Sequence record: MN067430 | Length of the DNA stretch: 39,389 nt | Source of the DNA: Escherichia phage vB_EcoP-Ro103C3lw | Direction: 5' to 3' (one strand) | Made by a program: the position numbers and the translations under genes | Shown: positions 1-39,389 of the stretch, in pieces | How the letters are laid out: every line of letters starts with the position of its first letter | Numbering within the stretch: position 1 is the first letter of the stretch | The notes under the pieces: model-generated | The model's input: the letters and a program-made list of their open reading frames with translations, nothing else | Databases searched by the model: none | Told to the model about the DNA's origin: nothing

Positions 1-191
1 TCTCACAGTTCAAGAACCTCAAGTCTCCCCCCATAGGGTCACTCTCAGTCAGACCAAAGGCCCTACCCCTAGACCGAAGGTCTAAACCTAAAGTCTTTGA
101 CCAGAAGTCAGGACCAGAAGTCTACCTCAAGGGCCTATATCTAGTGGTTGGGACCAGAGGTCGGGACTATATGTTGTGTCACTGAGTCTCT
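1..191. repeat. Left direct terminal repeat (DTR), 191 bp
   Basis: Bases 1..191 are identical to 39199..39389 by direct comparison; T7-like genomes carry terminal redundancy of this size (T7 160 bp). Confidence 0.95.
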
Positions 192-537
192 ATCTGTATT
201 AGCCTAGAGTCATCACCTCAGGTCATCACCTACAGTCTCACTACCTACAGTCAATCTATCAGTGATGTGACACCTACAGTCAAAGACCTACGGTCCGGTA
301 GACACTCAGATTGACCTATCGTTTATCAGAGACCTTAGGTCTAGTCTCACAGGTTATCGTTATAGTCTCTGTTTAGCAGTCAGGGAGACTATCAGTCTGA
401 CTAGGGTTATTGTTGGTGTCTACCAACTGGACTCTTATTATCCATAGTCAGGACTTAAAGTCCATCATCTGTAGTCGTTATTGGTCTACCTTATAGAGTC
501 ACTGGACTACTGTATAAATTAACATGATAAATAGTTG

Positions 538-566
538 TTGACGTTTAGTCTGACCTATGAGACTAT
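538..566 (+). promoter_or_regulatory. Host sigma70-type early promoter, T7 A1-like
   Basis: TTGACG (538..543), 17-nt spacer, GACTAT (561..566); spacer tttagtctgacctatga closely resembles the T7 A1 promoter spacer as recalled. Confidence 0.55.
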
Positions 567-678
567 AGCTTCCGTCAACACGACACGGCAACAACCGGAT
601 AGTGAAGACGCCGGGTCATCCCGGTTAAGTAGACAGCCTGATAAGTCATACGAACAACAGGCAGATGACAGAAAGTAG

Positions 679-708
679 TTGACAAGATGTACCGACTTAA
701 AGTAGTAT
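679..708 (+). promoter_or_regulatory. Host sigma70-type early promoter, T7 A2/A3-like
   Basis: TTGACA (679..684), 18-nt spacer, TAGTAT (703..708). Confidence 0.5.
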
Positions 709-1165
709 GGACCACATCGAAGCAACGGTGACGACCGACACTAAATGGTCTACCTGAAGTCCACTGACTGAAAGGAATGCTCTTTAATAATATGACCGTG
801 TATTGATAGGCTTACTAACAACATAGGGTAACTATCATGGATTACAATCAGTTGAATTGGGAATGGTTGGCATACGAGGCCGCCTATGAAGATATGCTGA
901 ATGCGAGTGCATATGTTTGCAGTGATTGCGATGCAATAAGTATTCATGAGGCGATAACAGACCATTTAGCATTTTACAGGAAGTTTGTAGCGTGAGATAG
1001 CTGGCACTAGCCAGCCTATCACTACACGGTCATGCTCTTTAACAATCTGGATAAACTCTTAATGTGCGCCGATAGCGACTAACTACAGGGTCTTTGAGTC
1101 TACATCTGAAGGCCCTGACTGATAGTCACTAACATACACACAAACAACTTTGAGAGGATATAACT

Positions 1166-1498
1166 ATGGAACGTAACGCTAACGCATACTATGAGCTGCT
1201 GGCTGCAACCGTTGAAGCATTTAACGAGCGTATTCAGTACGACGAAATAGCTGAAGGCGATGATTATCACGATGCGCTGCATGAGGTCGTAGACGGTCAG
1301 GTTCCGCACTATTACCACGAGATTTTCACGGTGATGGCTGCTGATGGTATAGACCACGAGTTCGAAGACTATGGGCTAATGCCTGATACCAAGGATGTGA
1401 CGCGTATATTGCAAGCTCGCATCTATGAGGCGCTTTATAACGATGTGCTTAATAACTCGGATGTGGTCTGGTTTGAGGCTGAAGAGGACTGCGAGTGA
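1166..1498 (+). CDS. ocr: Ocr-like DNA mimic, anti-restriction protein (T7 gp0.3 homolog)
   Basis: 110 aa, very acidic; motifs [52 protein letters not shown] match T7 Ocr as recalled; SD gagagg upstream of ATG. Confidence 0.9.
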
Positions 1499-1653
1499 TG
1501 GTAACTTATGGTCTCTGCCAGAACCATGTAGCCAACGCCCGGATTATGGTCAAGACCGGGCAGTTAAACCACGATGCGACTATGCGTCACCTGAAGGCGG
1601 TCTATGAGGGACGCAAGCGTATTCACGACAGCTTACACGATGAGGGCAAGTAA
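1498..1653 (+). CDS. Small early protein, 51 aa, possible gp0.4-like
   Basis: ATG overlaps the ocr stop (TGATG); same length as T7 gp0.4 with weak pattern similarity (YGL...LK..YE); not in the ORF track because it is under 60 aa. Confidence 0.45.
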   Translation: MVTYGLCQNHVANARIMVKTGQLNHDATMRHLKAVYEGRKRIHDSLHDEGK

Positions 1654-1655
1654 AC

Positions 1656-1781
1656 ATGTACCAGATAACGTATAGCAGTGAACAGGCGTTCTACGATGGG
1701 TGCTACGAGATGATGAGGCGCGGGGCTTGCTACGTGGCTAATCACCAGAGCCTGACCATAACGCTGACGGGTGGTTACTGA
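1656..1781 (+). CDS. Hypothetical small early protein, 41 aa
   Basis: ATG 3 nt after the previous stop; open frame to TGA at 1779..1781; tight packing typical of T7 early genes. Confidence 0.35.
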   Translation: MYQITYSSEQAFYDGCYEMMRRGACYVANHQSLTITLTGGY

Positions 1782-1851
1782 GTGATAGACGAGAGGTCAT
1801 CGACTGATAGGTGGCCTCAAAGATTGCCACTTACATTGATAGGAGTTAACT

Positions 1852-1941
1852 ATGAACATCGGTTACTGGGTATGCTTATCTCCGGTCATCTTTCTGATAG
1901 CTTGGGGACTTCTGGACGCAATCAAGCGAGGGTCATTCTAA
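1852..1941 (+). CDS. Hypothetical small hydrophobic peptide, 29 aa
   Basis: SD AGGAG 7 nt upstream of ATG 1852; translation MNIGYWVCLSPVIFLIAWGLLDAIKRGSF. Confidence 0.4.
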   Translation: MNIGYWVCLSPVIFLIAWGLLDAIKRGSF

Positions 1942-2138
1942 TGAGCTGGGTACTTATGGGTATCTTCGGCTATGGACTTATCGTCTACGTACTGGTGAGT
2001 GACATCAACAAGGCGCGTAAAGTCTACAAATTCAACTATGTACGTATGGGTCGCTGGACTGTACGTCAACCTAACGGGCGATTCATGCGCAACTTAGCAA
2101 ACGTCTGGGATATAGCAACACTTGGGAGCAAACTGTAA
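1941..2138 (+). CDS. Hypothetical small membrane protein, 65 aa
   Basis: ATG overlaps the preceding stop (TAATG); hydrophobic stretch WVLMGIFGYGLIVYVLV; the supplied ORF 1782..2138 extends it upstream from a GTG that lacks an SD. Confidence 0.45.
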   Translation: MSWVLMGIFGYGLIVYVLVSDINKARKVYKFNYVRMGRWTVRQPNGRFMRNLANVWDIATLGSKL

Positions 2139-2464
2139 TGAACAAGTCATACGGGATTAATCTGGTACACTCTATGGACGCAGACATGCAAATGTTAAGC
2201 CTACTGGCTACCGGGTATCGTCACGGAACGTCAAGTCACTCCGCACGTCAACAGCAGGAGAGGGACCGGGTACTGCAAGCAAGACTCCGGGCTGAGGGCC
2301 ATAAGTCCGAGCTGATGTGTCTGGCGTATGGTGGACGACCAATCACCGATGATGGTAAACTTCTGGTCTCAGGCTGGAAGGCGATAGACCAACGGTCAAC
2401 CATCAAGCACACGACTCATGGTGACTTCAGTCATCTCCACGCTAACCCGCTGATATGCAAGTAG
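2138..2464 (+). CDS. Hypothetical early protein, 108 aa
   Basis: ATG overlaps the upstream stop (TAATG); sits where T7 has gene 0.7 but is far shorter and has no recognisable kinase motifs. Confidence 0.5.
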   Translation: MNKSYGINLVHSMDADMQMLSLLATGYRHGTSSHSARQQQERDRVLQARLRAEGHKSELMCLAYGGRPITDDGKLLVSGWKAIDQRSTIKHTTHGDFSHLHANPLICK

Positions 2465-2469
2465 TAATT

Positions 2470-2492
2470 ATTAAACCCTCACTATAGGACTC
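2470..2492 (+). promoter_or_regulatory. Phage RNAP promoter, immediately upstream of the RNAP gene
   Basis: attaaaccctcactataggac; +1 G at 2487. Confidence 0.75.
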
Positions 2493-2560
2493 AAGGTCTA
2501 AGACTTCAGTTAAAGACCAAAGAGACTTAAGTGAAAGACTAACAAACAAGGACTTTAAGT

Positions 2561-5227
2561 ATGAGCGTCATTCAGCTTGAGAAGCATGACTTCTCGGACA
2601 TCTCCAACGCTATCGAGCCGTTTAACATTCTGGCTGACCACTACGGGCAGGACCTCGCAGTCAAACAGCTTCAGCTTGAGCATGAGGCATACACTGAAGG
2701 CGAGCGTCGTTTCATCAAGAATCTTGAGCGTCAGGCTGAGCGCGGGGGGCTGGCTGATAATCAGGTCGCAAGACCATTGATGCAAACTCTGGTCCCTAAA
2801 CTGGCGCAAGCCGTCAAGGAGTGGCACGAGACCCAAGGGTCAACCCGTGGGAAACCTCAGGTCGCCTTCCTGAAGCTGAGCACCGAGTCGAAACCTCGTG
2901 CGCTACTGGTCCAACCCGAGTCGGTGGCGGTCATCGTCCTGAAGATTGCGCTCAGTAAGCTGGTCAAGCCTGAAGGCGTACCGATAACGCCGATGGCCTC
3001 CGCGATTGGTCGCACACTGGAGGATGAAATCCGTTTCGGTCGCATCCGTGACCAAGAGCAAGAGCACTTCAAGAAGACCATCGCCGAGAACCTGAAGAAA
3101 CGCGCTGGCGTGGCCTACAAGAAAGCCTACATGCAAGCGGTCGAAGCCTCCATGCTGGACCAGAAGCAACTGGATGATGCGTGGGGGACTTGGAGTCCTG
3201 ACGAGGCGGTCCACGTAGGAATAAAGATGCTGGAGCTGCTGATTCAATCCACACAACTGGTAGAGCTGAAGCGACACAACGCTGGGAACGTAGCGTCAGA
3301 CGTCGAGATGGTCCACCTGTCAGACTTCTGGGCCAAGAAGATGGCTCAGCGAGGCTACAGCCTTGCGGGTATCGCTCCGGTCTACCAGCCGTGCGTCGTG
3401 CCTCCACGCCCTTGGAACTCAGTGGTCGGTGGTGGGTACTGGGCTAAAGGTCGCAGACCTCTCCCGCTGATGCGCTTAGGGTCGAAGGCTGCTATCGCTC
3501 GCTACGAGGAAGTTTACATGCCTGAAGTCTACGAGGCGGTGAACATCATTCAGCAGACACCGTGGAAGGTGAATAAGAAGGTGCTGGACGTAGTGAACAT
3601 GGTCGAGAAGCTGAACAATACGCCTATCGCAGACATCCCGCAGATGGACCCGATGAAGCCTGAGGAGTACGCAGGTGAGACCGAGGAAGAACTTAAAGCG
3701 TGGAAGAAAGCTGCTGCTGGAATCTATCGCCGCGAGAAGGCCCGACAGTCCCGCCGCTTGTCCCTGAGCTTCATCGTCGGACAGGCGAACAAGTTCTCTC
3801 AGTTCAAGGCCATCTGGTTCCCGTACAACATGGATTGGCGCGGTCGAGTCTACGCGGTCCCGATGTTCAACCCGCAAGGCAACGACATGCAGAAGGGTCT
3901 GCTGACTCTGTCAGTCGGCAAGCCAATCGGTGCGGACGGCTTCAAGTGGCTGAAGGTTCACGGTGCAAACTGCGCGGGTGTCGATAAAGTCACCTTCGAG
4001 GAGCGCATCAAGTGGGTCGAAGACAACCACGACAACATCCTCGCGGCTGCTAAGAGTCCGATGGATAGCATCGACTGGTGGGGCAAGTTAGACTCTCCGT
4101 TCTGCTTCCTCGCGTTCTGCTTCGAGTATGCCGGGGTCATGCACCACGGGCTGAGCTACTCCTGCTCACTGCCTATAGCGTTCGATGGGTCCTGCTCTGG
4201 GATTCAACACTTCAGCGCGATGCTCCGTGACCACGTTGGTGGACATGCGGTCAACCTAACGCCAAGCGGGAAGGTCCAAGACATCTACCGCATTGTGTCC
4301 GACCGGGTGGAAGAACAGCTTAAGGAACTACTGGTAAACGGTAGCGACAACGAAGTCAAGACCTTCGAGGACAAGAAGACAGGCGAAATTACTGAACGTC
4401 TGGTCCTTGGAACTCGTGAGCTGGCCCGTCAGTGGCTGACCTACGGGATGTCACGCACGGTCACTAAACGCTCGGTCATGACTCTGGCCTACGGGTCGAA
4501 GGAATACGGGTTCGCAGACCAAGTGTTTGAGGATACCGTGATGCCAGCGATTGACAACGGCAAGGGCGCGATGTTCACGGACCCAAGCCAAGCGTCCCGC
4601 TTCATGGCTAAGATGATTTGGGATGCAGTGAGCGTGACCGTAGTTGCTGCGGTAGACGCGATGAAGTGGCTCCAAGGCGCTGCTAAACTGCTGGCTGCTG
4701 AGGTCAAGGACAAGAAGACCAAAGAGGTCCTGAAGCCTTGCCTCCCGGTTCACTGGGTCACGCCTGATGGCTTCCCGGTCTGGCAGGAGTATCGCAAGAA
4801 GGACACCACACGTCTTGACCTGATGTTCCTCGGGACTTTCCGTCTCCAGCCGACAGTCAACAAGGGGTCGAGCAAGGAGCTGGACAAGCACAAGCAGGAG
4901 TCAGGCATCAGCCCGAACTTTGTACACTCACAAGACGGCAGTCACCTGAGGAAGACTGTGGTCCACACCCACCGCAAGTATGGCGTGATGTCCTTCGCAG
5001 TGATTCACGATAGCTTCGGGACCATCCCGGCTGACGCTGAGTTCCTGTTCAAAGGTGTCCGTGAGACGATGGTCGAGACCTACCGCGACAACGATGTGCT
5101 GCAAGACTTCTACGAGCAGTTCGCGGACCAGCTTCACGAGAGCCAGCGCGACAAGTTGCCTGAGCTTCCAAAGCGCGGTAAACTGAACATCGAAGACATT
5201 CTGTTATCTGACTTTGCATTCGCCTGA
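2561..5227 (+). CDS. gp1: Single-subunit DNA-directed RNA polymerase (T7 gp1 homolog)
   Basis: 888 aa; long conserved blocks versus T7 RNAP, e.g. WFPYNMDWRGRVYAVPMFNPQGNDM, HGANCAGVDKV, PIAFDGSCSGIQHFSAML, KRSVMTLAYGSKE, NFVHSQDGSHLRKTVV, ends SDFAFA. Confidence 0.97.
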   Translation: MSVIQLEKHDFSDISNAIEPFNILADHYGQDLAVKQLQLEHEAYTEGERRFIKNLERQAERGGLADNQVARPLMQTLVPKLAQAVKEWHETQGSTRGKPQVAFLKLSTESKPRALLVQPESVAVIVLKIALSKLVKPEGVPITPMASAIGRTLEDEIRFGRIRDQEQEHFKKTIAENLKKRAGVAYKKAYMQAVEASMLDQKQLDDAWGTWSPDEAVHVGIKMLELLIQSTQLVELKRHNAGNVASDVEMVHLSDFWAKKMAQRGYSLAGIAPVYQPCVVPPRPWNSVVGGGYWAKGRRPLPLMRLGSKAAIARYEEVYMPEVYEAVNIIQQTPWKVNKKVLDVVNMVEKLNNTPIADIPQMDPMKPEEYAGETEEELKAWKKAAAGIYRREKARQSRRLSLSFIVGQANKFSQFKAIWFPYNMDWRGRVYAVPMFNPQGNDMQKGLLTLSVGKPIGADGFKWLKVHGANCAGVDKVTFEERIKWVEDNHDNILAAAKSPMDSIDWWGKLDSPFCFLAFCFEYAGVMHHGLSYSCSLPIAFDGSCSGIQHFSAMLRDHVGGHAVNLTPSGKVQDIYRIVSDRVEEQLKELLVNGSDNEVKTFEDKKTGEITERLVLGTRELARQWLTYGMSRTVTKRSVMTLAYGSKEYGFADQVFEDTVMPAIDNGKGAMFTDPSQASRFMAKMIWDAVSVTVVAAVDAMKWLQGAAKLLAAEVKDKKTKEVLKPCLPVHWVTPDGFPVWQEYRKKDTTRLDLMFLGTFRLQPTVNKGSSKELDKHKQESGISPNFVHSQDGSHLRKTVVHTHRKYGVMSFAVIHDSFGTIPADAEFLFKGVRETMVETYRDNDVLQDFYEQFADQLHESQRDKLPELPKRGKLNIEDILLSDFAFA

Positions 5228-6246: not shown

Positions 6247-6510
6247 ATGGGCCGACTTTACAGTGGCAACCTCAACGCTTTCAAAGCAGCGTGTAACAGG
6301 CTCTATCAGCTAGACTTCGCTGTCATTTCTCAGGAGTTTCAAGACCTTGCGTCACGCCAAGAGTGCATGAGACTCAGGGTCGAGGACCGGGCTGGTAACA
6401 TATTCGCTCTTGAGTCCTTCGCACACTACGACGAAGACGTACTGTACAATACTGCAACCGACTTCCTTAATGGTCTCGCTGACCAACTCGACACATGGAG
6501 CAAATCATAA
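6247..6510 (+). CDS. gp1.2: gp1.2-like inhibitor of host dGTPase
   Basis: 87 aa; MGRLYSGNLNAFKAA...RLRVEDRAGN...HYDEDVLYN matches T7 gp1.2 as recalled. Confidence 0.85.
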   Translation: MGRLYSGNLNAFKAACNRLYQLDFAVISQEFQDLASRQECMRLRVEDRAGNIFALESFAHYDEDVLYNTATDFLNGLADQLDTWSKS

Positions 6511-8387: not shown

Positions 8388-8564
8388 ATGACCGTTTACC
8401 GTGGCATCTTCGGGTCTCTGTACGCAGTGAACCAACACGGAGTCGTCTGCGTTAAGCCTGACGGTAGCGAGTGGTGCGCATCACATTACAGTGTCGAGGG
8501 ATTCCAAGACGCTATTGATAAAGGCTACATGACGGAGGTGGTCGATGCCCAAGGAGTCAACTGA
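8388..8564 (+). CDS. Hypothetical protein, 58 aa (gene 1.8 position)
   Basis: SD ggaaggag before ATG 8388; the supplied ORF begins upstream at 8325. Confidence 0.45.
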
Positions 8565-8715
8565 GAAGAAGTACATCGTGGAACTTGAAGGGCGCGTTCA
8601 GTCCTTTGACGTCCCGGTCTACGCTAAGTCTCTGGACGAGGCGACCTTGAAGGCTCAGGAATATGAAGACGCTGGCTTTGTTGTCGGACGCATTCACCCT
8701 GAGCATAAACAATAA
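8545..8715 (+). CDS. gp2: gp2-like inhibitor of host RNA polymerase
   Basis: 56 aa; [14 protein letters not shown] resembles T7 Gp2 (SFEVPIYAETLDEA); not in the ORF track because it is under 60 aa. Confidence 0.75.
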
Positions 8716-12972: not shown

Positions 12973-15144
12973 ATGATTGACTTACAGAACATCTGGGGTT
13001 CTGACATCGAGACTAACGGTCTCCTTGACACCGTGTCCCAGTTCCACTGTGGGGTCCTGATTAACGCCGAGTCGAACGAGACCCTGAAGTATGGGGTGGT
13101 GCCGATGGTCGGTATCGTCGGCGGCTTTAAGGAGTATGTGGAGAAGGTCGAGCAGATTGCCGCGACTCCGCATGGACTGCTGGTCTTCCACAACGGTATT
13201 AACTATGACGTTCCAGCGATTGACATCCTGAAGCGTAAATACTTTGGCAAGCGTTTCAACTTCCCGAAACAGAAGATGATAGACACGCTGGTCATGGGAC
13301 GACTGATGTATCCGAACATCAAGTTCTCGGACATGGGCGCTGTGAAAGCTGGCCGTCTGCCACCTAAGATGATGGGACGCCAGTCGCTTGAAGCGTGGGG
13401 CTATCGTCTCGGTGAGATGAAGGGTGAGTACAAGACCGATTACATTGCCAAGTGCAAGGCCGAAGGTATCGACTATAAGGCTGGGGACGAATGGTTGTTC
13501 CCTAGCCAAGAGATGCTGGACTATAACGTCCAAGACGTTGTGGTCACACTGGCCCTGTTCAAGAAGTTCCTGACCGACCAGTTCTACTTTGGGTCTCCTG
13601 AAGCAGGACTTTGGGCTGTGTACGCATTGCGTCTCGAACATGATGCTGCATGGACCTGTGCGAAAATGGAACGCAACGGCTACCCGATGAACTCGGAGAT
13701 AGTCGAAGGCTTGTATCGTGAGCTGTCCATAAAGCGTGCTGAGCTGCTGGATAAACTTCGGTCAACCTTTGGTAGCTGGTATCAGGCCAAGGGCGGTAAG
13801 GAGTTCTTCAAGCATCCTCGGACTGGCGTGGACCTGCCGAAGTATCCACGAGTCGTGTACCCGAAGGTCGGGTCCATCTTCAAGAAGCCGAAGAACAAAG
13901 CTCAACGTCTTGGACTTGAGGAGTGCGAGCGCGACTCCCGCGATACTATGGAAGGCGCACCGTTCACACCTATCGAGTACGTTGAGTTCAATCCGGGGTC
14001 CGGCGACCACTTAGCTAAAGTCTTGATGGACCGTGGGTGGGAACCTACAGAGTTCACTGAGACTGGTAAGCCGAAGTGTGACGACGAGGTGCTGGAGAAC
14101 GTGCATCTGGCAGACCCTGAGGCTCAGGCTTGCGTAGAGCTGGTCCGTGAGTATCTGGTAGTCCAGAAGCGCATCGGTCAGGCGGCTGAAGGTAAGAACG
14201 CATGGTTGAAACTGGTGGGTCCAGACGGAAGGATGCACGGGTCGATTAACCCCTGTGGTGCTGTGACTGGACGTGCGACCCATAGTTCACCGAACATGGC
14301 TCAGGTCCCGGCTAACGGTGCTCCTTGGGGTGAAATCTGCCGTAGCGCCTTTGGTGCTCAGTGGAACAAGAACCACGGGAAGTCCGAGCCGTGGATTCAA
14401 GTTGGGGTGGATGCCTCAGGTCTTGAACTCCGCTGTCTGGGGAACCGAGCGTCTCCGTTTGATGGTGGTGCTTATGCGACCACGGTTGTCGAAGGTGACA
14501 TCCACTGGGCCAATGCGGTCAACGCCGGATTAGCACCTGACGTCAAGCGCGATAAGTCCAACCACGACCATGATGCTTTCCGTAACAACGCCAAGACGTT
14601 TATCTATGCGTTCCTGTATGGTGCAGGGGCCGCTAAGATTGGACTGATAGTCGGCGGTGGGAAGAAGGAAGGTTCAGCCCTGATGAAGAAATTCATTGAG
14701 GGTACACCAGCTATCAAGGACCTTCGAGAGGCTGTGCAGAACACGCTCATCTCCGAGTCCAAGTGGGTAGACGGTGAGAACATCGTGAAGTGGAAACGCC
14801 GATGGCTGAAAGGTCTGGACGGTCGCCGCATTCACATCCGGTCCCCACACTCAGCACTTAACGCCCTGCTTCAGGGTGATGGTGCAGTGGTCTGCAAGCA
14901 CTGGATAGTCGAGACCGAGCGTATGCTTGAAGAAGCTGGCTATGTCCACGGCTGGGAAGGTGACTTTGCGTACATGGCTTGGGTCCACGATGAGCTGCAA
15001 ATTGCGTGTCGTACTCAGGCGATTGCCGAAGAAGTCGTCAAGATTGCTCAACTTGCTATGCGTAAGGTGGGCGAGTTCTATAACTTTAAATGTGTCCTTG
15101 ATACTGAAGGTAAGATTGGACCAACGTGGAAGGAGTGTCACTAA
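12973..15144 (+). CDS. gp5: DNA polymerase, family A (T7 gp5 homolog)
   Basis: 723 aa; SDIETNGLL (exo motif I), VFHNG.NYDVPA, AWGYRLGEMKGEYK, YNVQDVVVT, GAVTGRATH, DASGLELRCL, NAKTFIYAFLYGAGAAKIG, MAWVHDELQ, ends GPTWKECH. Confidence 0.97.
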   Translation: MIDLQNIWGSDIETNGLLDTVSQFHCGVLINAESNETLKYGVVPMVGIVGGFKEYVEKVEQIAATPHGLLVFHNGINYDVPAIDILKRKYFGKRFNFPKQKMIDTLVMGRLMYPNIKFSDMGAVKAGRLPPKMMGRQSLEAWGYRLGEMKGEYKTDYIAKCKAEGIDYKAGDEWLFPSQEMLDYNVQDVVVTLALFKKFLTDQFYFGSPEAGLWAVYALRLEHDAAWTCAKMERNGYPMNSEIVEGLYRELSIKRAELLDKLRSTFGSWYQAKGGKEFFKHPRTGVDLPKYPRVVYPKVGSIFKKPKNKAQRLGLEECERDSRDTMEGAPFTPIEYVEFNPGSGDHLAKVLMDRGWEPTEFTETGKPKCDDEVLENVHLADPEAQACVELVREYLVVQKRIGQAAEGKNAWLKLVGPDGRMHGSINPCGAVTGRATHSSPNMAQVPANGAPWGEICRSAFGAQWNKNHGKSEPWIQVGVDASGLELRCLGNRASPFDGGAYATTVVEGDIHWANAVNAGLAPDVKRDKSNHDHDAFRNNAKTFIYAFLYGAGAAKIGLIVGGGKKEGSALMKKFIEGTPAIKDLREAVQNTLISESKWVDGENIVKWKRRWLKGLDGRRIHIRSPHSALNALLQGDGAVVCKHWIVETERMLEEAGYVHGWEGDFAYMAWVHDELQIACRTQAIAEEVVKIAQLAMRKVGEFYNFKCVLDTEGKIGPTWKECH

Positions 15145-15428
15145 TGGCTATTACTAAACGCCTGAGCTGTAAGTTCGACCTGAAGATTGTCTTTACGTCC
15201 GATGACGTAGAGGCCTACGCTCGTGAGCTGGTCCAGATGTCTAAGGACTATGTGTCCGGTGAGAAGCAGGATGGGCTGACCCGCAAGCTGGTGGAAACTG
15301 CGGTGGAGCATGGGGTCGAAGCTGCCATTGAGCTGCACCTGAAGTCAGTACTGGGGTCCAAGCTGAAAGATGAGCTGCCGGAAGATGGAGCGACCCTCTC
15401 TAACATCAGCGTGGGGTTCAAACGATGA
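15144..15428 (+). CDS. gp5.5: gp5.5-like protein (T7 gp5.5 binds host H-NS)
   Basis: 94 aa; MAITKRLSCKFDLKIVFTSDDVEAYARELV resembles the T7 gp5.5 N-terminus (MAMTKKFKVSFDV...); ATG overlaps the polymerase stop. Confidence 0.6.
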   Translation: MAITKRLSCKFDLKIVFTSDDVEAYARELVQMSKDYVSGEKQDGLTRKLVETAVEHGVEAAIELHLKSVLGSKLKDELPEDGATLSNISVGFKR

Positions 15429-15634
15429 GCGAATACTTACGGGTCCTTGCGGCCCTTAAGTCCTGCCCGAAGACCTTCCAGTCCAACTACGTGCGCAACA
15501 ATGCGTCACTGGTGGCTGAGGCTGCGAGTCGCGGACATCTGAGCTGTCTGTCTATGGACGGACGTAACAACGGTGCGTGGGAGATTACAGCTGCTGGCAC
15601 CAAGTTTCTGAACGAACACGGAGGCTGTCTATGA
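15425..15634 (+). CDS. gp5.7: gp5.7-like protein
   Basis: 69 aa; KSCPKTFQSNYVRNNASLVAEAASRGHLSCL...GAWEITAAGTKFL is near-identical to T7 gp5.7 as recalled. Confidence 0.8.
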   Translation: MSEYLRVLAALKSCPKTFQSNYVRNNASLVAEAASRGHLSCLSMDGRNNGAWEITAAGTKFLNEHGGCL

Positions 15635-39198: not shown

Positions 39199-39389
39199 TC
39201 TCACAGTTCAAGAACCTCAAGTCTCCCCCCATAGGGTCACTCTCAGTCAGACCAAAGGCCCTACCCCTAGACCGAAGGTCTAAACCTAAAGTCTTTGACC
39301 AGAAGTCAGGACCAGAAGTCTACCTCAAGGGCCTATATCTAGTGGTTGGGACCAGAGGTCGGGACTATATGTTGTGTCACTGAGTCTCT
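39199..39389. repeat. Right direct terminal repeat (DTR), 191 bp
   Basis: Exact copy of 1..191. Confidence 0.95.

Follow-up and report, generated by a model that had tools for sequence, protein, structure and literature searches.

The left end of the DNA of Escherichia phage vB_EcoP-Ro103C3lw (MN067430) carries a short and strongly acidic open reading frame, which raises two questions: does it encode a genuine and functional Ocr, the DNA-mimic anti-restriction protein of the T7 gene 0.3 family, and is it, as an initial annotation had proposed, the first gene of the phage to be expressed? Here, the whole stretch of 39,389 nucleotides, referred to below as the window, was analysed by computational means. 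On the combined evidence, the reading frame at 1166..1498 very probably encodes a functional Ocr that is made early. As such, this identification is already known and ordinary; near-identical copies are annotated in Kayfunavirus genomes. The less ordinary aspects are found in the leader that precedes the gene and in the length of its product.

An Ocr family member at the left end of a Kayfunavirus genome

The first 190 or so bases of the window (1-191) recur at 39199-39389 as direct terminal repeats. Therefore, the window is a complete linear genome, of which position 1 is the true left end. The closest genomes belong to Kayfunavirus (Studiervirinae); within the first 25 kb, 85-91% can be aligned, at a nucleotide identity of about 84-90%. 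The window is thus a complete Kayfunavirus genome, in which the left end and the gene under study are separated by about 1.2 kb (Table 1).

The open reading frame runs on the + strand from an ATG at 1166 to a stop codon at 1496-1498, included in the coordinates, and its 110 residues comprise 28 Asp and Glu against 5 Lys and Arg. Coordinates, strand, length and composition all agree with the 110-aa acidic reading frame that had been described at this position. The calculated pI of the protein is 3.78 and its charge at pH 7 about -22, while T7 Ocr, calculated alike, has values of 3.64 and -27.

Searches of different kinds point to one and the same family. The Pfam profile PF08684 ('DNA mimic ocr'), which has a curated cut-off of 25 bits, matches with 109.7 bits (E 1.1e-31) over 92 of its 101 positions, and PHROG 2568 ('ocr-like anti-restriction') matches with an E-value of 9.5e-53. 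When all PDB sequences were searched with phmmer, T7 Ocr was the sole protein matched (1S7Z, 2Y7C and complex structures); the chains of 1S7Z and 2Y7C align without gaps over residues 10-102, with an E-value of 2e-28. In a BLASTP comparison with T7 gp0.3 (from V01146), 58% of the residues are identical (E 4e-35). The long motifs that the initial annotation had seen in common with T7 Ocr are therefore real, as judged from the BLASTP and Pfam E-values, and the product of 1166..1498 is a true member of the Ocr family.

An Ocr homologue is encoded by 570 records of the GenBank phage collection, and genome papers on Kayfunavirus routinely list the protein, for example for Hafnia phage Ca (PMC8861465). 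The best match among the phage records is gp005 of Escherichia phage Peacock (QEG09667.1, MK903279.1), a phage of the same genus. This protein, annotated as 'overcome classical restriction', is also a short form of 110 residues and is 99.1% identical, with S69 where the window protein has Y69. At the DNA level, Peacock is 97% identical to the window from 1114 onward, whereas the region upstream of its ocr gene is mosaic: Peacock contains two other small open reading frames (776..1021 and 1095..1373), none of which occurs in the window, and it lacks an insertion and a 52-aa reading frame that the window has. In several GenBank records, Kayfunavirus Ocr proteins are named 'protein kinase', which is apparently a mis-annotation.

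Table 1. Features of the window that are discussed in the text
Feature	Position	Strand	Basis
T7 A1-like host (sigma-70) early promoter, TTGACG-17 nt-GACTAT	539..567	+	Local alignment to T7 A1 region; homology inference
T7 A3-like host (sigma-70) early promoter, TTGACA-18 nt-TAGTAT	679..708	+	Promoter scan; aligns to T7 A3 region
Degenerate boxA-like duplicate GCTCTTTAATAA	778..791	+	Left member of the 18-nt direct repeat at the borders of the insertion
238-bp insertion relative to phage Peacock	795..1031	+	BLAST of window against Peacock
Putative orphan acidic 52-aa ORF, upstream of Ocr on early transcript	837..995	+	ORF list; gene call in contigs
rrn-type boxA motif TGCTCTTTAACAAT in Ocr leader	1033..1046	+	Exact match to GCTCTTTAACAA
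R0.3-like irregular hairpin, candidate RNase III processing site	1073..1131	+	RNA fold; T7 comparison
Shine-Dalgarno sequence GAGAGGA of the Ocr gene	1152..1158	+	Direct sequence reading; 7 nt before ATG
Ocr (gene 0.3 homologue), short 110-aa allele, DNA-mimic anti-restriction protein	1166..1498	+	Pfam, PDB, PHROG, T7 and Peacock identity, AF2 model
gp0.4-like gene, 51 aa	1498..1653	+	BLASTP to T7 gp0.4; PHROG 5058
First phage-RNA-polymerase promoter AACCCTCACTATAGGA	2474..2489	+	Consensus scan
gp1.2 homologue (dGTPase inhibitor)	6247..6510	+	PHROG 2949, E 4.5e-36; tblastn with T7 gp1.2, 58% identity, E 3e-32
gp2 homologue (host RNA polymerase inhibitor)	8545..8715	+	PHROG 1307, E 3.5e-23; tblastn with T7 gp2, 46% identity, E 1.6e-8
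gp5.5-like gene (H-NS binding family)	15144..15428	+	PHROG 1452, E 4e-21, profile only
gp5.7 homologue	15425..15634	+	tblastn with T7 gp5.7, 78% identity, E 1.5e-36; PHROG 1334, 17900

Conservation of the fold and of the acidic pattern

It could be argued that an acidic, low-complexity reading frame resembles Ocr merely as an artefact of its composition. However, the alignment with T7 Ocr extends well past the acidic residues: 55 of the 110 positions are identical in a global alignment, and at the columns that are not acidic in both proteins identity still amounts to 37/86 (43%). The long motifs that both proteins have in common are hydrophobic or aromatic for the most part, and the positions that are invariant across 65 homologues, down to 40% identity, include the non-acidic Y8, P47, Y50, G61, Q83, R85 and I86. 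The profile E-values, ranging from 1e-31 to 1e-53, and a predicted fold that superposes closely on solved Ocr structures argue against an artefact as well. The sole support for it came from the poor superposition of a first structural model that was built from a shallow alignment. The probability that composition explains the likeness is therefore negligible, and with the profile, the PDB match, the non-acidic identity and the fold superposition taken together this explanation was ruled out.

In that first AlphaFold (AF2) run, based on 25 sequences that are at least 87% identical, the mean confidence was limited (pLDDT 76.8); the Ocr chains were already on top in Foldseek, at a TM-score of 0.32 and an rmsd of 14 Å. 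This model was discarded for its wrong packing, and the confirmation of the fold rests on a second and deeper alignment of 65 diverse sequences, to which T7-, SP6- and Proteus-phage-type homologues had been added. The resulting model has a pLDDT of 86.3 and a pTM of 0.79 and predicts helices at 7-25, 32-45, 50-57 and 78-95, a four-helix layout that resembles the helices A-D described for Ocr (PMC4872106). With this second model, eight T7 Ocr chains are the only significant PDB matches in Foldseek (TM 0.72-0.81, rmsd 1.3-1.6 Å, superpositions covering 87-91 residues), the next match having an E-value of 2.9; for 1S7Z in particular, the values are TM 0.75/0.77 and rmsd 1.4 Å. The matched chains represent Ocr either free or in association with BrxX/PglX, RNA polymerase, AriA or a type I methyltransferase. 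Structure prediction thus recovers the Ocr fold. Similarity restricted to low-complexity acidic residues, combined with a different predicted fold, would have spoken against an Ocr; this is not what was found, because the similarity reaches beyond the acidic residues and the predicted fold is the same. The assignment as an Ocr-type DNA-mimic anti-restriction gene, made earlier from the letters of the sequence, is in this way backed by sequence, profile and predicted fold.

The pattern of negative charges is conserved along with the fold. Nineteen of the 20 core acidic residues of T7 Ocr that can be aligned with confidence (mature D12 to D92) are still acidic in the window protein, the single loss being D12, which is replaced by Ala. 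All five residues of the E59/D62/E64/E66/D67 patch are acidic, and the section that bears this patch has been called 'clearly important for activity' (PMC3439906). As judged from the alignment, the acidic excess at the positions with which T7 Ocr imitates phosphates is kept. The alignment between both proteins is ambiguous past about residue 95, and position matches in the acidic tail are not to be over-read. It is also in this part that the differences accumulate: the window protein counts 110 residues versus 117 for T7 Ocr and has a tail of 8 residues after the conserved Trp (FEAEEDCE, ending in DCE) versus 22 in T7 (ending in EEDEE), and BLASTP places a 7-residue insertion before this Trp.

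On the basis of these similarities, the window protein would be small, all-helical and strongly acidic, and its most likely state is a homodimer that resembles bent B-form DNA in shape and charge. F54 and A58 are conserved (F53 and A57 in the numbering of the mature protein); Zavilgelsky et al. reportedly identified these positions as dimer-interface residues in 2009, and searching the literature for F53D and A57E, mutants of the dimer interface, returned nothing relevant. Lys76 is conserved too, and the corresponding mature Lys75 has been proposed as the residue that is cross-linked across the Ocr dimer interface (PMC2806950). By homology, such a dimer would stand in for about 24 bp of bent DNA and, as a competitor of DNA, would occupy the groove in which type I restriction-modification enzymes bind it, in accordance with the mechanism described for T7 Ocr (PMC3439906, PMC4872106, PMC2806950). 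With the groove blocked, incoming phage DNA would be neither cut nor modified.

Other proteins are known to serve a similar end by different means. ArdA, which is found on conjugative elements, is described as an acidic dimeric DNA mimic that, like Ocr, blocks type I restriction-modification (PMC2731889), but it constitutes an unrelated family, and Pfam, PDB and fold searches with the window protein gave no match to it. Unlike Ocr, ArdA is reported not to inhibit BREX effectively (PMC11317158). [quoted passage not shown] This protein is not a DNA mimic, as it depletes S-adenosylmethionine enzymatically; the window protein matches Ocr and not the SAMase.

The early transcript and a possible cassette ahead of ocr

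As in T7, the gene occupies the leftmost early position, is preceded by A-type promoters, a boxA motif and an R0.3-type hairpin, and overlaps the gp0.4 gene by one base. Two A-type promoters are recognizable in the window versus three in T7. The A3-like promoter is the best promoter-like site in 1..2700, with 10 of 12 matches; the A1-like site was omitted by the generic promoter scan on account of its weak -10 hexamer. The T7 gene 0.3 leader has the same boxA motif upstream (T7 813-829), and an rrn boxA-spacer oligonucleotide, ugcucuuuaacaauuua, is given in Table 1 of PMC2724277. With one mismatch allowed, the 12-nt core GCTCTTTAACAA has only two matches in the genome, where 0.10 would be expected, namely the exact copy and a duplicate with one mismatch at 779-790. 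The leader is furthermore structured: the RNA fold of 1025-1165 has an energy of -32.8 kcal/mol (z -2.6), the architecture of the hairpin and its flanking sequence parallel those of T7 800-924 folded in the same way, and BLAST finds 1034-1091 to be similar to T7 813-871. An Rfam scan of 1..3000 gave no match at E-values up to 1, and the hairpin and boxA calls are therefore grounded in the T7 comparison and in folding.

A genome-wide scan for the phage-polymerase promoter AACCCTCACTATAGGA resulted in 12 copies with at most three mismatches, all on the + strand, and none of these is located upstream of the ocr gene. Since the first copy is found at 2474, the gene can be transcribed by host RNA polymerase only. 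The distance from that first copy to the RNA polymerase gene downstream (2561..5227) is about 70 nt, which suggests that the phage polymerase can boost its own transcription. For the ocr gene, host RNA polymerase would read from the two A-type promoters through the boxA-like motif and the R0.3-like hairpin, the presumed functions of these elements being promoter activity, antitermination and RNase III cleavage, respectively. In analogy with the transcription-coupled entry of T7, synthesis of Ocr would precede the entry of most of the genome, and of the restriction sites on it, into the cell.

Whether it is also the first product to be made is less straightforward. At the borders of the 238-bp insertion relative to Peacock are an 18-nt direct repeat, in which the boxA motif is duplicated (777-794 and 1032-1049), and 21-nt inverted repeats (792-812 and 1013-1033, 20 of 21 positions matching). 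The insertion contains a reading frame for 52 residues that starts with ATG behind a weak AGGG ribosome-binding site and would encode a product with a pI of 3.95; a near-perfect hairpin follows at 996-1020. No match to this product was obtained in Pfam or PHROG, nor by tblastn in 50,697 phage records, and its sole relative is one protein cluster with 98% identity. This cluster derives from four independent metagenome contigs (L005-L008), which contain the same insertion and in which the reading frame has been called as a gene, always at this site. Its five copies differ by 1-2 nt, with flanks that are about 94% identical, which fits a recently spread cassette. The organization of the segment 795..1031 is suggestive of a small early-gene cassette that is mobile or recombining.

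Because the insertion places the 52-aa reading frame after the host-type promoters, Ocr is probably the second gene on the early transcript; it is the second product of this transcript if the reading frame is indeed translated. The designation 'first expressed gene' in the initial annotation thus holds in so far as no gene of known function lies further to the left and ocr is placed like T7 gene 0.3, but it does not take account of the reading frame between the promoters and ocr. One of the contigs, L006 (logan:ERR15093832_482024), displays at 497-1669 the same promoters, leader and 52-aa orphan frame without an ocr gene. In place of the latter, it encodes proteins of 77 aa (phrog_9227) and 174 aa (phrog_11084), which are candidates for alternative early anti-defence genes at the Ocr locus.

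Downstream, the ocr stop codon overlaps the start of the gp0.4-like gene (TGATG), and the T7 genes 0.3 and 0.4 overlap likewise. The gp0.4-like product is 39% identical to T7 gp0.4 in BLASTP (E 2e-6). It was not recognized in the Pfam scan of the window, whereas its orthologues in the contigs L005, L007 and L008 carry precomputed assignments to PF26807 (Phage_T7_GP04). The region between the gp0.4 homologue and gene 1 (1653-2561) is occupied by small reading frames that belong to PHROG families of unknown function (33188, 36394, 2385 and 7066), and one of these frames, 1782..2138, appears to fuse two PHROG families for which Peacock has a gene each. In contrast to T7, there is no gp0.7 kinase downstream: no similarity to it was detected in the 108-aa reading frame or elsewhere in the window. 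The further arsenal that had been listed around the ocr gene (gp1.2, gp2, gp5.5 and gp5.7) is present in its entirety, with the qualification that gp5.5 was found by profile only, a tblastn search of the window with T7 gp5.5 giving no direct match at E 0.01.

Short and long alleles, targets and implications

The Ocr proteins of Kayfunavirus exist in two sizes. Among the 120 closest protein clusters (P0001-P0120), 45 are short (109-122 aa) and 75 are long (162-179 aa). The long forms, such as those of Ro45lw (YP_009818253.1, 166 aa) and Hafnia phage Ca (ORF2, 169 aa), have an Ocr domain that is 89-97% identical to that of the window protein and the same C-terminal EEDCE, but they possess an extra segment of about 55 aa (EYWVVDAKTG...GRHLKVEDINDNVVFDP) between WFEAEE and this common end. 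At the DNA level, the window corresponds to the long form of Ro45lw minus a clean deletion between the 18-nt imperfect direct repeats GTTTGAGGCTGAAGAGGA and GTTTGACCCTGAGGAGGA; the loci concerned are 1471-1498 in the window and 1238-1423 in L004. Loss of the extension seems to be recurrent, since the junctions of the short forms vary (EEDCE, EESDEEDCE and ASEEDCE) and truncated variants (P0028, L007) as well as a chimera (P0020, fused to a gp0.4 tail at the common RHLK) also exist. Searched on its own, the extension gave no match in Pfam or PHROG and no PDB sequence match below an E-value of 0.08. With the whole long-form proteins, Pfam matches beyond ocr were weak and below the cut-off (PepSY 0.0089, LEA_3b 0.022).

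This dimorphism invites the thought that the 110-aa protein arose from the 162-179-aa form by a deletion that left it partly disabled, the lost C-terminal domain being needed for full activity. The predominance of long forms among the closest clusters, the clean, repeat-bounded nature of the deletion and the occurrence of further truncated variants are all in line with such a scenario. It is nonetheless very unlikely. T7 Ocr, the experimentally validated prototype, is itself devoid of the extension, and its truncation to Ocr99 had no effect on activity (PMC3439906). Moreover, the 45 short clusters with their several junctions indicate that the loss has been repeated and tolerated, and the window gene has kept an intact reading frame and its DCE end, with 99.1% identity to the protein of a phage that was isolated independently. 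Because T7 Ocr functions without the extension and the Ocr99 truncation is harmless, the short allele is most likely fully competent against type I enzymes. It is doubtful that the dimorphism is adaptive, with the short allele of the window being an escape or host-switch variant and not a neutral deletion; if it were, the range of host systems that are blocked could be modulated by the domain of about 55 aa, or else the detection of Ocr by Ocr-sensing systems such as PARIS.

A different question is which activity of the protein has been selected for. It may be a homologue of Ocr of which the main selected role is not the blocking of type I enzymes but the inhibition of BREX (PglX/BrxX) or the shut-off of host RNA polymerase. 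Indeed, T7 Ocr binds both BrxX and RNA polymerase in solved structures, and these are among the top fold matches (PMC11317158, PMC7064336). From the 14 residues of T7 Ocr that are listed as contacting BrxX (PMC11317158), nine are conserved in the window protein (H48, Y49, Y50, I62, D63, E65, K76, Q83 and Trp, the last being counted only under a gapped alignment), and the absence of gp0.7, the kinase and host shut-off protein, could favour a role towards RNA polymerase. These activities are, however, not exclusive of type I inhibition, and they all depend on a single DNA-like surface that the window protein has conserved. The remaining BrxX contacts are less well preserved: Ser59 and Ser69 are altered to Ala and Tyr, respectively, and Glu107, Glu111 and Glu116, which are C-terminal in T7 Ocr, have no clear counterpart. 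The sequence holds nothing that separates the roles. A main function other than type I inhibition is considered unlikely, and a functional anti-restriction protein of the Ocr type stays the preferred reading.

T7 Ocr inhibits both type I restriction-modification (PMC3439906, PMC4872106) and BREX (PMC11317158, PMC11464382). For the window protein, inhibition of BREX is plausible as well, yet less secure than that of type I enzymes because the C-terminus differs and several BrxX contacts have changed. The distribution of potential target sites in the genome can be considered in this context. Among the recognition sites of model type I enzymes, 3 were counted for EcoKI, 7 for EcoBI, 6 for EcoAI and 16 for EcoR124I, versus about 4-9 expected, and all of them lie to the right of ocr. 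Type I sites are thus not avoided, which fits a reliance on an early inhibitor. Bas105, a related Kayfunavirus, was reported to be sensitive mainly to type II and III systems in the BASEL study (PMC11990801), a pattern that would agree with effective evasion of type I systems.

The initial annotation had gone further in stating that the presence of Ocr implies a host range with strains that carry type I restriction-modification systems. This claim is weak. Ocr is near-universal in this group of phages, as is apparent from the 570 records, and according to published work it is active against BREX and binds to RNA polymerase as well; its occurrence therefore reveals hardly anything specific about the hosts.

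With respect to therapy and host range, type I restriction-modification and probably also BREX should not be effective barriers to the phage. Type II and III systems may still restrict it, as reported for related phages including Bas105 (PMC11990801), and infection may be aborted by PARIS-type systems, which sense Ocr (PMC11464382). Ocr is a textbook case of a DNA-mimic anti-restriction protein, and its finding here matters little beyond correct annotation. Only the boxA-duplicating cassette with its orphan acidic reading frame and the dimorphism of short and long Ocr forms are mildly new, and neither alters the identity of the gene at 1166..1498. They do have some research value, the former as a leader that swaps small reading-frame cassettes at a duplicated boxA, and the latter as a split between short and long versions of one anti-restriction protein.
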